DNA of 64,000 bases from Candidatus Sumerlaeaceae bacterium. GTDB taxonomy: Bacteria > Sumerlaeota > Sumerlaeia > Sumerlaeales > Sumerlaeaceae. This document shows positions 16,517 through 53,450 of the stretch, in pieces (the first letter of the stretch is position 1; the number at the start of each line of letters is the position of its first letter). The translations under genes were made by a program, and so were the position numbers. Location of the stretch: positions 103,800-167,799 of the forward strand of contig JBMFRB010000006.1 in assembly GCA_049968255.1 (NCBI GenBank). Direction: 5' to 3'. A model generated the notes under the pieces. It worked only from the letters and a program-made list of their open reading frames with translations, was not told the DNA's origin and did no database searches.

Positions 16517-16966
16517 TCAGGGGATATCGCGGCCCTCTGTGGTGAGAACAATGCGACCATGCTTGACGCCCTTGCTGGCAACGAGCTCATCCGCGAGCGC
16601 CCGCACACGGCCCGCCTCGCCACGAAGAATCACGACTTCAAGGCAATTGTCATTGTCGAGATGCACGTGCGTGGCTGAGACGACTAGGTCGGTGTGGTGA
16701 TGTTGCAAGTCACCGAGACGCTCTGACACTTGGTGGTTGTGGTGATCATAGACTAGCGTCACCGTAGCAGCCACCTTGCCTTTTGCGTCGCGCCATTGTT
16801 CCTCCACAAGTTTTGCTCGGATGAGATCGCGAATGGCCTCGCTCCGGTTTGCATACCCTTGTTTTGCAATAAGCTGATCGAACTTTGCGAGAAGTCTCGC
16901 ATCCATGGAAACCGTGTAGCGAGCCGCTCCCCGCTCGTTGGACTCTTTTTTCACCAAAGCACTCAC
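16517..16966 (-). CDS. nikR: Nickel-responsive regulator NikR
   Basis: Ribbon-helix-helix RYTVSMD...GYANRSEAIRDLIR, VYDHH, and Ni ligands QHHH, THVHL and NCLEV. Confidence 0.95.
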   Translation of the reverse strand: MSALVKKESNERGAARYTVSMDARLLAKFDQLIAKQGYANRSEAIRDLIRAKLVEEQWRDAKGKVAATVTLVYDHHNHQVSERLGDLQHHHTDLVVSATHVHLDNDNCLEVVILRGEAGRVRALADELVASKGVKHGRIVLTTEGRDIP

Positions 16967-17177
16967 CTCAGAGTTTCAACTTTTGTCGCTGACCACATCT
17001 ACTGTGTATGCTGCGCAAATCAGCGTTTTCAATTGTTCAGAGTATCGCCCGCTTCTGGACTGCCACATTTTCCTCATGCTCTACGGAAAGCTAACCGAAA
17101 ACGAAGGTTCAAGCTCGCGCGGGAGGCAGTATGCTTAGAGTTGAATAAAAATTGGTGGGATTTTGTTGCATTGCAGT

Positions 17178-17204
17178 GTCATACGATTTTTAAAAACGTG
17201 TGAA
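17178..17204. promoter_or_regulatory. Candidate NikR operator GTCATAC-N13-GTGTGAA
   Basis: 17179-17203 TCATACGATTTTTAAAAACGTGTGA is an inverted repeat with 10 of 12 symmetric pairs matching and an A/T core. It abuts the AAGGAG RBS of the prepilin gene, in the region divergent from nikR. Confidence 0.6.
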
Positions 17205-17219
17205 AGGAGATTGTTTTCG

Positions 17220-17852
17220 ATGTTCATGTCCCACCGCAGTACCTTCTCGTCGCGTTCCAGAGCATTCACGCTCATTGAGCTGCTTATTGTGGTCGCCATC
17301 ATTGCGATTCTTGCGGCCATTGCTGTGCCAAATTTCTTAGAAGCACAAGTGCGCTCGAAAGTGGCGCGCTGCAAGGCCGACATGCGGTCGATGGCTACAG
17401 CTGTAGAGTCGTACGCCGTGGACAACAACACGTATCCTCTCTACGGTCAGATCAAACCGGACAACTCGGTTTACGAGCCAGCAACAACCGTGGGTATGTA
17501 CGACAAAAATGAATTCCCGATGTATACCATCACCACGCCGATTGCCTATATCACGTCGCGTTTTGAGGATCCCTTTGCGACGAAAATTCCAGGACCCGAG
17601 CCATACATTCGCTACATCAACTATATCAACCTACCATATCACCTGTACACATTGAACAATCCAATGTCTGAAGCAGATAAGCAGGATATTCTCAACAAGT
17701 CCGGACAGTGGCGGATGATTGCTTGCGGGCCAGACGGCGACCGGGGCGCGGATGCGAAGCTCAACATTATTTATGATCCGACCAATGGGACAGTCAGCAA
17801 TGGCGACATCGTGCGAACGCAAAAGTACAGTGAAAGCGTGCCACGGCAGTGA
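17220..17852 (+). CDS. Type IV prepilin / GspG-like pseudopilin
   Basis: RA|FTLIELLIVVAIIAILAAIAVPNF N-methylation motif with E5; C-terminal CGPDGD and YDPTNGTVSNGDI; AAGGAG RBS before ATG 17220. Confidence 0.9.
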   Translation: MFMSHRSTFSSRSRAFTLIELLIVVAIIAILAAIAVPNFLEAQVRSKVARCKADMRSMATAVESYAVDNNTYPLYGQIKPDNSVYEPATTVGMYDKNEFPMYTITTPIAYITSRFEDPFATKIPGPEPYIRYINYINLPYHLYTLNNPMSEADKQDILNKSGQWRMIACGPDGDRGADAKLNIIYDPTNGTVSNGDIVRTQKYSESVPRQ

Positions 17853-17957
17853 GGCAACTGTGCTTGCGTGTGGCGCGTAAGCTCTGTATAAAGGCCATAG
17901 CCAAAATAGAGCTTGGGTTTGCTCTCGACGATATGCAACGGAGGAAGGACTTGGGCA

Positions 17958-18521
17958 ATGCACGATTCACCCTATGAACATAGTCATGGTTCGGCAGAAT
18001 TTTCCGTACGAGTCGTGCGGAAAGCAGCAAGCGGCCCTAACGTATGGAATCGAGGCAAGGAGCCAGCCGACTGGTGGCAAGAGCTCATCAATAGGCATGG
18101 TCACGTCGGACCTTGGAACGTCCTCGGCTATCGGATGGGTCGATACATCTTGCGTGAGCTAGGAACACCGTGGGGTAGTCACGAATACGTGATTACAGCT
18201 CACATTCCTCCGACGACACCTTATTCGTGTATTCTCGATGGCCTAGCCGTAGGTACGGGCAACAGTGAAGGGCGGCTCGACCTGTTGTGGGCGGAGGTTG
18301 CTCTGCCCGAGCTCACCCACGTTAGCGTGCGTCGCGCGTCGGATCGCAAACTGCTGCTCGTGTTTCTTCCGCGTCCTGAATATCTGGAGCGCATTAGCCA
18401 AGGAACGGTGCGTGACCTCGAGCAGCAGTCACGCGAGTGCGAAAAGCTCGCAGAGAGCGAACTTTTCGAAGTGCGCTGGTTGGAGCCAGCGCTACAGGGG
18501 CCTAGTTATTTGCGTTTATAG
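17958..18521 (+). CDS. FmdE-family metal-binding protein
   Basis: HGHVGPWNVLGYRMG...SCILDGL...GNSEG matches the FmdE pattern. His-rich N-terminus MHDSPYEHSHG; GGAGG RBS before ATG 17958. Confidence 0.75.
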   Translation: MHDSPYEHSHGSAEFSVRVVRKAASGPNVWNRGKEPADWWQELINRHGHVGPWNVLGYRMGRYILRELGTPWGSHEYVITAHIPPTTPYSCILDGLAVGTGNSEGRLDLLWAEVALPELTHVSVRRASDRKLLLVFLPRPEYLERISQGTVRDLEQQSRECEKLAESELFEVRWLEPALQGPSYLRL

Positions 18522-19075
18522 CGCCCCATCAGCATGCCCTCAGCGAGAATGTGGCCTTTCATGGCGTCGAGCAATTGGGCCTTTGTTAGGCCTGCGGGTT
18601 TGCCAAGAACAACATCGAGTGCGTAGACTTTGAAATAGTAACGGTGGGTGCCGCTGGGCGGACACGGCCCGCCATAGCCAAGGCGACGAAAATCGGTTAT
18701 CCCTTGCTTGGCTCCATTCGGAAGCTCGCCGACCTTTGGTAGGTTCTCGGGAAAGGTCGGCGAGCTGACGGGCCAGTCGTACAACACCCAGTGGACCCAG
18801 GTACCGCGCGGTGCATCGGGATCATCACTGATAAGGGCGAAGCTTTTTGCGCCCTGGGGAATTCCGTTGATCTGAAGTGGCGGCGACACATCAGCACCAT
18901 CGCAAGTATACTTGCTGGGAATCATTTCGCCTTCCGCGAACGCAGGGCTTGTGACTGTGAGTTTCATAGTTTGACCTCCGGTGGTTTCGGACGCGTTGAC
19001 TAGAATGGTGACGCAAAGCAAAGCGCCAACACACAGGGGGACCAGGATTTTCACGGGTGTGCGGCTGGCTCTCAT
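18506..19075 (-). CDS. YbhB/YbcL (PEBP / Raf kinase inhibitor-like) protein with signal peptide
   Basis: YTCDGADVSPPL, DDPDAP, WVHWV, YGGPCPPSGTHRY; AAGGAGG RBS. Confidence 0.93.
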   Translation of the reverse strand: MRASRTPVKILVPLCVGALLCVTILVNASETTGGQTMKLTVTSPAFAEGEMIPSKYTCDGADVSPPLQINGIPQGAKSFALISDDPDAPRGTWVHWVLYDWPVSSPTFPENLPKVGELPNGAKQGITDFRRLGYGGPCPPSGTHRYYFKVYALDVVLGKPAGLTKAQLLDAMKGHILAEGMLMGRYKRK

Positions 19076-52542: not shown

Positions 52543-52929
52543 ATGAAGTACTCAGCCCGCAAGGGTTTCACCCTCGTGGAAATCATGATCGTTGTCGCCA
52601 TTATCGGGATCATCATTGCAATCGCGGTCCCTGCGTTCCTGCGCGCTCGTGAGAATTCGCGCGGTCAAGCCTGCCAGGAAAACCTGTCGAAGATTGACGG
52701 CGCAAAAGAGCAGTATGCTCTGGAGTTCCGTCTGTCCAACGGCGGGACGGTCACAATGGCGGAATTGATTGATCCGCCTGGAGCGACGGCTGGAAATAAA
52801 GAAGGATATTTGAAGGCAGAGCCCAAGTGCCCCTCTGGCGGTACCTATACGGTAAACCCGATTGGGACGAACCCGACGTGCTCCATCGGCTCGAGCAACG
52901 CGCCGTTCACTCCGCACGTTCTGCCGTAA
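52543..52929 (+). CDS. Type IV pilin, probable major pilin
   Basis: RKG|FTLVEIMIVVAIIGIIIAIAVP, C-terminal CPSGGTY...PTCS; AAGGAG RBS. Confidence 0.92.
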   Translation: MKYSARKGFTLVEIMIVVAIIGIIIAIAVPAFLRARENSRGQACQENLSKIDGAKEQYALEFRLSNGGTVTMAELIDPPGATAGNKEGYLKAEPKCPSGGTYTVNPIGTNPTCSIGSSNAPFTPHVLP

Positions 52930-52988
52930 GGTGAGAGGAAGGCTAGCACAAAAAGGCACTTAGAGTTCACCGAGGGGGTGGATCTTTG

Positions 52989-53029
52989 TGGCGGTAGAGG
53001 GGCGGATGTTCCTCTACCGCCAGTGTTTT
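52989..53029 (+). terminator. Hairpin / terminator between the tandem pilin genes
   Basis: Perfect 12-bp stem TGGCGGTAGAGG (52989-53000) / CCTCTACCGCCA (53011-53022) followed by GTGTTTT. Confidence 0.75.
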
Positions 53030-53051
53030 ACTAGCGAAGGGTCGGAACGCC

Positions 53052-53450
53052 ATGCTCTTAGGGACAAAACAATGGTCACGCGGCTTGACCCTCATCGAGG
53101 TTGTGATTGTGCTGGCGATTATTGCCATTATTGTTGCGATTGCGGCGCCTACGTGGCTTCGCCAGCGCGAAAATGCCCGTGGGATTGCCTGTCAGGAGAA
53201 TCTGGTAAAGATCTCCCAAGCCAAAGAGCAATATGCTATGGAGTTTCGGCTTTCAAACGGAGGTACGCTCGTGTATCCAGACGACCTCGTTTCGCCACCT
53301 GGAACAACCGGTTCTAACCAAGGTTTTCTCAAAGTAGTTCCGCGCTGCCCAGCCGACGGTATCTACGCGGCTAATCCTATTGGGGTGGACCCCACCTGCT
53401 CGATTGGCAGCTCCGTCGCTCCCTATGTGCCCCATATCATTCCCCACTAA
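53052..53450 (+). CDS. Type IV pilin, paralog of the upstream pilin
   Basis: RG|LTLIEVVIVLAIIAII; shares ACQENL, AKEQYA.EFRLSNGG and NPIG..PTCSIGSS with 52543-52929. Confidence 0.9.
   Translation: MLLGTKQWSRGLTLIEVVIVLAIIAIIVAIAAPTWLRQRENARGIACQENLVKISQAKEQYAMEFRLSNGGTLVYPDDLVSPPGTTGSNQGFLKVVPRCPADGIYAANPIGVDPTCSIGSSVAPYVPHIIPH

Follow-up and report, generated by a model that had tools for sequence, protein, structure and literature searches.

We analyzed a 64,000-nucleotide stretch of DNA (hereafter the window; contig JBMFRB010000006.1) from a Candidatus Sumerlaeaceae bacterium of the phylum Sumerlaeota, in which the gene for the nickel-responsive repressor NikR is divergent from genes for a GspG-like prepilin and an FmdE-family protein. 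The best overall explanation of this locus, which we consider probable, is a NikR-repressed nickel regulon with a nickel-dedicated pilin that serves acquisition of the metal across the cell envelope. The components of this explanation differ in strength: judged from sequence, it is quite likely that the pilin contributes in some form to nickel acquisition and moderately likely that, as part of a filament, it takes part in capture or import; that the metal is carried by filament retraction through a secretin is a tentative idea. The comparison covers 75 Sumerlaeota genomes, 36 with nikR and 39 without; the genome from which the window derives (the source genome) is ~3.1 Mb in size and 95.75% complete.

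Profile searches found all three genes intact and in the arrangement that the preliminary description of the locus had given. The nikR gene lies on the minus strand at 16517-16966, its start probably being the GTG at 16954. It is present as a single copy in the source genome, and its product scores well above the cut-offs of NF003381 (191.5, cut-off 105), NikR_C (PF08753; 106.7, cut-off 22) and PF01402 (32.6, cut-off 20.5), and matches PDB 2bj1 with an E-value of 2.5e-41. In an alignment with NikR proteins of solved structure, His89, His100, His102 and Cys108 (numbered from 16966) occupy the positions that we take to be those of the nickel ligands, and the DNA-reading strand of the protein is R-Y-T-V-S. 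The pilin gene (17220-17852, plus strand, starting at 17220 or 17226) encodes a class III prepilin of a GspG-like family that is expanded in Sumerlaeota, and it is probably co-transcribed, across a 105-nt gap, with the gene for a single-domain FmdE-family protein (17958-18521, plus strand; PF02663 score 47.1, cut-off 22.9).

The divergent intergenic region (16967-17219) contains only one operator-like site, GTCATAC-N13-GTGTGAA with an AT-rich spacer (17178-17204). The site abuts the ribosome-binding site of the pilin gene (AGGAG, 17205-17209, plus strand, assigned from the sequence) on its upstream side and is ~210 nt away from nikR. This palindrome is very probably a NikR operator, and its identity as such taken together with membership of the pilin in the regulon appears highly likely. 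The preliminary description had pointed to a palindrome abutting the ribosome-binding site; the palindrome is present, but we rejected it as evidence by itself because 170 of 200 shuffles of the intergenic DNA give a 6-of-7 palindrome, so the case rests on conservation instead. With a search matrix from whose training this genus was left out, 17178-17204 is the top site genome-wide, at 36.0 bits; the top scores of 12 column-shuffled matrices range from 13.0 to 23.4 bits, and no leader among those of the 21 other paralogue positions scanned in the source genome scores above 12.5 bits. A 7-N13-7 element stands just before the pilin gene, or before a gene for a secreted protein that we call X, in 13 of the 13 pilin-operon leaders first examined, and is doubled in four. 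Two exact patterns match in 16 and 14 of the 75 genomes, respectively, their union amounting to 27 of the 36 nikR-bearing and none of the 39 nikR-lacking genomes, and reversed control patterns match in 4 and 3 genomes. The operator goes with the pilin both where nikR is unlinked (G016, G063, G071, G067, G021 and G023-G025) and where nikR is in tandem (G057 and G001).

The form of the site also agrees with what is described for other NikR proteins. The delta-proteobacterial NikR box GTGTTAC-N13/14-GTAACAC has a reversed form, GTAACAC-N13-GTGTTAC (PMC545781, of which part of the text was available), and the sites in G021 and G071 are exactly this reversed box; the E. coli-type box orientation, by the consensus in the available part of the same source, is not present in the intergenic DNA. 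Position 3 of the half-site is C in 39 of 46 half-sites (12 genomes) where the DNA-reading strand of NikR carries Thr (R-x-T), and in 2 of 18 (8 genomes) where it carries Gly (R-x-G); these counts include non-independent kin, though both states are found in several families. A -35-like TTGAC or TTGCA occurs 27-29 nt upstream of the site in 10 of 13 loci inspected, which would place the site over the transcription start, as befits a repressor. This element is not found in G055 and is not evident in the source genome, where a sigma-70 scan of 16967-17219 found no consensus promoter.

DNA was read around nikR in all 36 genomes, several of the contigs being short, and an operator-led pilin is present in 25 of them, from 11 families. 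The arrangement of nikR divergent from pilin and fmdE, which the preliminary description left to be sought in related genomes, recurs in G055, G056, G066 and G059. Its proposal that the pilin occupies the position of an uptake gene is borne out by relatives in which the pilin is co-operonic with metal ABC or energy-coupling factor (ECF) importers: the pilin gene stands directly before genes for a ZnuA-like substrate-binding protein (SBP), an ATPase, an ABC-3 permease and a methyltransferase in G007, G026-G029, G067 and G071, and directly before an ECF S component in G001, G021 and G023-G025. The order in G007 is pilin, SBP, ATPase, permease, methyltransferase and nikR, and the pilin is in tandem downstream of nikR in G057 and G001. 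In G064 and four genomes of family f11, nikR is divergent from X, followed by the pilin, and the f11 operons extend to a ZnuA-like binding protein, an ABC ATPase and an ABC-3 permease, with a methyltransferase in most. Other nikR genes adjoin CbiM-type importers (G023-G025, G070 and G072) or unrelated genes. Because the source genome contains ~20 close paralogues of the pilin, and 21-97 prepilin-motif genes are present per genome in 75 of 75 genomes of the phylum, adjacency to nikR needed a chance test; a same-strand pilin within 2 kb is expected in ~1% of cases. The predicted operator, the regulon membership and the operon position of the pilin are thus shown by comparative genomics at the level of sequence, as are the scarcity of TonB receptors and the presence of the type IV machinery described below.

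Loci that lay outside the training sample extend this pattern. Among ten retrieved with the first exact pattern, four head pilin operons (G006, G021, G063 and G071), and the others head X at a contig end (G005), a ZnuA-like operon (G057), an Fe-only hydrogenase (G007), ECF-type genes (G019; assigned partly by eye) and a secretin gene with a cbiM-like fragment behind it (G018); the tenth, on contig C196 of G056, scores below 14 bits and has no plausible target. Four further loci retrieved with the second pattern head the pilin, ECF S component and methyltransferase genes in G023-G025 and a cbiM operon in G011. G067, G030, G070, G003 and G058 were added through searches that used the SBP and the head of the pilin; the last of these genomes (66% complete) has an operator-led pilin, and nikR was not found there. 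The pilin of G002 lies near a contig end. In the source genome, the ZnuA-like operon is on contig C7 with a leader site of 19.9 bits, and the counterparts of this site in G056, G057, G063, G064, G066 and G006 score 22-30 bits. Protein X also led to similar loci in two records with titles from other phyla: one titled Omnitrophota (L224) has two sites, X and the pilin, and one titled Planctomycetota (L225) has a methyltransferase, a weak site, a form of X that ends in a dockerin-like tail, a pilin with a frameshift and genes for a ZnuA-like SBP, an ATPase and a permease.

Three operator loci merit description in their own right. In G018 (L119:6359-8285) the operator overlaps a good promoter and heads a 502-aa secretin gene with close homologues in five other genomes. 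In G006 (L048:2599-5705) a 30.5-bit operator heads a three-gene minor-pilin-like operon that is divergent from nikR, and in G007 (L118:603-3225) two operators lie between a YbhB/PEBP gene and the Fe-only hydrogenase.

The pilin has the hallmarks of a class III prepilin. Cleavage is predicted between Ala and Phe at 17265, Phe1 and Glu5 are present, residue -1 is Ala rather than Gly, and the N-methylation motif exceeds its cut-offs (PF07963, 33.7 against 21.2; TIGR02532, 30.4 against 16.3). A Pfam scan gave no match to SBP_bac_10 (DUF1559) at E <= 0.1. The structure model (pLDDT 93.9, 71 sequences) has a helix at residues 4-55 and is closest to the GspG/EpsG major pseudopilins (Z 8.4, rmsd 2.7, 102 of 196 residues); its top structural matches are pilins throughout, and a Foldseek search with it gave no match at E <= 0.001. 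Like GspG, EpsG and PulG (PDB 3fu1, 3gn9, 4lw9 and 1t92), it combines a class III helix bearing Glu5 with the same core fold (Z 7.4-8.4) and a Gly-Pro-Asp loop near the C-terminus. It differs from them in its length of ~196 residues against 115-135, the GspG-type fold carrying ~80 extra residues, in scoring below the GspG cut-offs (TIGR01710, 47.6 against 88.85; PF08334, 18.5 against 21), in having ~20 paralogues per genome and in the location of its gene outside the gsp cluster; by eye, a full gsp-like cluster is on contig C1 and a separate canonical GspG-like gene on C2. Over the 71 sequences there is almost no variation in the hydrophobic helix or at Glu5, and in the head Asp80 (17502-17504) and His126 (17640-17642, mature numbering) are kept in at least 16 of 17 aligned members of the window's group. 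A named homologue is BRCON_0248 of Ca. Sumerlaea chitinivorans, whose cluster representative is 74% identical in the pilin head. In the tree, the nickel-linked pilins fall into three groups of 11, 8 and 2 rows.

Cobalamin provides a parallel case. Cobalamin riboswitches normally lead btuB, and 107 matches to them occur in 71 of the 75 genomes. We read 40 riboswitch loci up to 8 kb, choosing the best-scoring ones spread over families and leaving out four already seen with a pilin, and found a same-direction pilin within 3.5 kb in 16 of the 40, where ~2% is expected. The B12-linked pilins form one clade (17 rows, support 100) that is separate from the nickel-linked pilins, and their genes stand directly before BtuF-, ATPase- and BtuC-like genes in G046 and G034 and before a BtuF-like gene in G035; B12 operons also pair the pilin with secreted proteins. 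One paralogue in the source genome, on contig C4, belongs to the B12 clade. Its locus (C4:188980-190682, L096) comprises a cobalamin riboswitch, a gene for a 272-aa, probably secreted protein without a Pfam match, the B12-clade pilin and larB/larC-like nickel-pincer genes. A second cobalamin riboswitch (C1:222093-223621, L165) precedes a lone gene for a 368-aa secreted protein without a Pfam match, homologues of which head B12 pilin operons in relatives. On contig C9 (L089:2306-11374), a sugar ABC transporter, a ROK repressor, a pilin paralogue, an oxidoreductase and a GHMP kinase are encoded in one run, and this paralogue is possibly a sugar-specific pilin.

Profile searches of the source genome found neither the TonB barrel (PF00593) nor the plug (PF07715), and Omp85 is encoded. 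Across the phylum a TonB barrel match occurs in 12 of 75 genomes, one in each; among them are 2 of the 25 genomes with an operator-led pilin (G007 and G067) and four with a B12 pilin (G007, G011, G038 and G046). The source genome encodes three secretins, one prepilin peptidase and 16 PF00437 ATPases; by match length, seven of the latter are full-length and PilB/GspE-like and nine are shorter and PilT-like, an unusually large motor set for three secretins. Demand for nickel accompanies the repressor, as a NiFe hydrogenase is present in 33 of the 36 nikR genomes versus 4 of the 39 others. The source genome itself encodes two NiFe hydrogenase large subunits, HypF and a nickel-insertion protein; CbiM and NicO were not found in it, at its completeness of 95.75%, and its two SBP_bac_5 genes are not among the top operator hits.

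The FmdE protein matches PDB 2glz weakly (profile E-value 0.0012). It shares with the FmdE family the His-x-His and distal Cys of a described Zn/Ni site (PDB 2glz; PMC2954224, in the part available), keeping His47, His49 and Cys91, and most FmdE genes are reported there to neighbour metal transporters. It departs from the family in that the Cys19/20 position is Gly in 34 of 34 aligned members, which leaves three of the four ligands of the tetrahedral His-His-Cys-Cys site, in the absence of the zinc finger, in its location outside an fmd operon and in belonging to a mostly exported subfamily. The local protein has no signal peptide and begins with Met-His-Asp and a His-rich stretch; this Met-His start resembles the nickel-binding N-terminus of NikM (PMC3945884, available in part), a resemblance only. 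The preliminary description had cast it as a cytoplasmic metal acceptor, which fits the local form, but by a hydropathy rule 25 of 35 homologues carry a signal peptide, and the ancestral form would therefore have been exported. The nine closest FmdE proteins, the local one included, lack a signal peptide, and 8 of the 9 begin with Met-His-Asp. The gene is an optional partner, being directly downstream of 7 of the 14 operator-led pilins of the window's group. A second, canonical FmdE with a zinc finger is encoded at C5:108939-109352 (L054), beside a chromate-transporter-family gene and unrelated to the nickel locus. Protein X is secreted, shows a weak DUF5689 match and probably consists of two OB folds, although its model, built from 8 sequences, is poor (pLDDT 59.5) and its tandem OB-fold matches are weak. 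It occurs in 9 of the 75 genomes; where the contig extends far enough, its neighbour is a clade-B pilin. It is associated with the second nickel-pilin group only and is absent from the source genome; in G006 it is tandemly duplicated in one 525-aa chain (L117:4659-6236).

These observations can be assembled into a model in which the locus is what remains, after splitting, of a nickel-acquisition regulon repressed by NikR. With ample nickel in the cell, Ni-NikR would bind the operator over the pilin leader and block transcription; when it is scarce, the pilin, the FmdE-like protein and the ZnuA-like ABC importer, which in the source genome would have moved to contig C7, would be made together. 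The pilin would belong to a family of pilins devoted to particular nutrients, with nickel as its own; once processed by the prepilin peptidase, it would most likely be incorporated by shared type IV machinery into a short pilus or pseudopilus. Within the filament it might capture a nickel complex or dock an exported nickel-binding partner, and the captured nickel would be brought through a secretin to the periplasmic binding protein, the job of TonB-dependent receptors elsewhere. The FmdE-like protein would be a metal-binding accessory, exported ancestrally and cytoplasmic here. We infer the repression of the pilin by NikR and its role in uptake from the arrangements described above, and assembly into a filament, passage through the secretin and the nature of the bound species are speculative.

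Several findings weigh against this explanation or narrow it. The pilin head contains one conserved His and one Asp and no His/Cys cluster. It is therefore doubtful that it binds free nickel directly and with high affinity, and its target could as well be a partner protein or nickel in a complex. A single origin of the nickel-linked pilins was rejected by an AU test (p = 0.015) on a quick tree of 57 rows, 10 near-duplicates having been removed from 67, so that they do not share one conserved design for binding nickel. Fe-only hydrogenase operons hold the pilins of a sister clade, the nikR-lacking genomes G045 and G036 have close pilin relatives without an operator that keep the methyltransferase neighbour, and most other paralogues in the source genome lie beside unrelated genes with no obvious uptake context. 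On the regulatory side, the genomes are related, so that counts overstate independence; sites from 13 of the 25 genomes with an operator-led pilin were used to train the matrix; in G017 the cassette is complete and no site exceeds 8 bits; and the C7 site lies within the range of the shuffled matrices and is not significant alone. A TonB_C domain is encoded in the source genome, in a cluster labelled TolQ/R- or ExbB/D-like by eye, and G023-G025 and G070 have CbiM-type importers beside nikR as well. Since these four genomes have such importers, and some nickel- and B12-pilin genomes a TonB barrel, replacement of the receptor by a pilin would be a tendency and not a strict rule.

Among alternative explanations, a function in export deserves the most attention, although we think it unlikely. 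The pilin could be a cargo-specific major pseudopilin of a type II secretion system that secretes or displays a co-encoded nickel scavenger, with nickel entering via porins; the cargo would be the OB-fold protein X in one clade and the exported form of FmdE in another. The resemblance of the pilin fold to GspG/EpsG, the gsp-like cluster on C1, the constant placement of X beside clade-B pilins, the signal peptides of most FmdE homologues and the secreted proteins of the B12 operons are all in keeping with this idea. The source genome, however, lacks X and has an FmdE protein without a signal peptide, and the pilins of G057, G063, G067, G071 and G021 have no exported partner except the binding protein of the importer itself; the pilin head is nonetheless 55-95% identical among f1 relatives. 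A less likely alternative again is that the pilin does not polymerise and acts as a nickel-repressed periplasmic or inner-membrane accessory that passes nickel to the importer, as has been proposed for NikK, NikL and NikN of NikMQO-type systems (PMC545781, in the available part). Its position directly before an SBP or ECF S component in many operons, and the Ala in place of Gly before Phe1, could be read this way. The near-invariance of the hydrophobic helix and Glu5 is instead what filament packing would lead one to expect, the pilin of the L225 cassette has a different type of N-terminal helix, suggesting fit to the machinery of its host, and in G018 a secretin is under the same operator.

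It is improbable that NikR controls the pilin for a purpose other than uptake, such as adhesion to or reduction of minerals that contain metal, or motility out of places poor in nickel, or that the cassette imports cobalt, a tetrapyrrole or another cofactor. PilA1 aids growth of Synechocystis on iron oxides (PMC4144903, available in part), neither the ZnuA-like SBP nor the vitamin-type S component is nickel-specific by family, and related pilins accompany an S component and the methyltransferase in the nikR-lacking G045. Nevertheless, the pilin gene lies between the promoter and the importer genes for three importer types, which, like the independent B12 parallel, fits uptake better than adhesion, and nikR tracks NiFe hydrogenase. 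That a scattered pilin paralogue landed by nikR through chance, the palindrome being noise or a site for autoregulation of nikR, we find barely credible: prepilin-motif genes are numerous and bare palindromes common in shuffled DNA, but the site stays with the pilin when nikR is unlinked or in tandem, abuts the ribosome-binding site of the pilin while lying far from nikR, and reappears at out-of-sample loci, which contradict a coincidence.

The favoured explanation, a nickel-dedicated pilin under NikR, retains the regulatory logic of known NikR regulons, and its new element would be a pilin in the place of the outer-membrane receptor. The delta-proteobacterial nik(MN)QO and nikKMLQO regulons likewise have NikR as repressor and a 7-N13-7 operator with an AC-N13-GT core, and they govern a nickel importer; among the predicted NikR targets there is an Fe-only hydrogenase, and in G007 too a gene of this type follows a putative NikR site (PMC545781, as far as its available text goes). 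They differ in that here the first regulated gene is type IV pilin-like, the importers are ZnuA-like/ABC-3 or a lone vitamin-type ECF S component, and the half-site is shifted to (G/T)TCA(C/T)AC along with Thr in the NikR strand.

TonB-dependent nickel receptors are repressed by NikR in other bacteria, and BtuB with BtuFCD is under a cobalamin riboswitch. The resemblance to these systems lies in a nutrient-repressed envelope gene ahead of a binding protein and an inner-membrane importer; the envelope gene here encodes a pilin and not a beta-barrel, and no barrel or plug was found in the source genome.

Type IV subunits serve import in the Sulfolobus bindosome, in which sugar-binding proteins carry class III signals, and in competence pili or pseudopili, which take up DNA by retraction (PMC4471445, available in part); the present case differs in its trace-metal target, in a head with a pilin fold instead of an SBP fold and in control by a metal sensor. 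Pilins are also tied to the acquisition of nutrients, namely glycans and iron, by the MUL2 pilin locus of Akkermansia (PMC13174399) and by PilA1 of Synechocystis (PMC4144903), respectively, but these are proposed to act by attachment or mineral reduction, and the available parts of the two papers describe no dedicated paralogue in a metal-sensor regulon. In the literature searched, whose scope left out most subscription journals, we found no description of a NikR-controlled pilin, of a pilin in nickel or metal uptake across the outer membrane, of Sumerlaea pilins, of a DUF1559 pilin in uptake or, among the 30 of 670 matches listed, of a pilin with a cobalamin riboswitch, and the words nickel, NikR and TonB do not occur in the main text of the Sumerlaeota paper PMC8092238.

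A broader idea, which we put forward with reserve, is that Sumerlaeota, as diderms with almost no TonB-dependent receptors, import scarce micronutrients by pilus, using an expanded family of interchangeable pilins that carry or dock the substrate, one shared type IV machine and retraction through a secretin, with the gene in the window providing the nickel subunit. Equally tentatively, each pilin might then have its own sensor: NikR for nickel, the riboswitch for B12 and the ROK repressor for sugar. If true, this would be categorically new, and if the pilus itself carries the metal, trace-metal import would join the jobs of type IV filaments as a functional alternative to TonB transport. It bears on how trace nickel and B12 enter outer-membrane bacteria that have no TonB receptors, and on the role of the large orphan pilin families of Sumerlaeota and other uncultured phyla; tying a pilin clade to a defined operator, metal and importer makes both questions testable.

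The gene neighbours of the trio encode a 4-alpha-glucanotransferase and a YbhB/PEBP protein, the gene for the latter (18506-19075) overlapping the end of fmdE by 16 nt. In accord with the preliminary description, which had remarked on the absence of adjacent nickel uptake genes, the window annotation shows no nickel transporter or TonB receptor gene beside the trio, and an Rfam scan of the window gave no match. Pilins of the sister clade lie inside or end Fe-only hydrogenase operons in the source genome (C18, L081), G055 (L242), G035 (L243) and G044 (L245). One paralogue of the source genome, at C10:60048-60800 (L086:6073-6798), is split into two reading frames, whether as a pseudogene or through an error in the assembly. 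At positions 52543-53450 of the window, two PilA-like pilins of another family are encoded in tandem, without assembly genes alongside.

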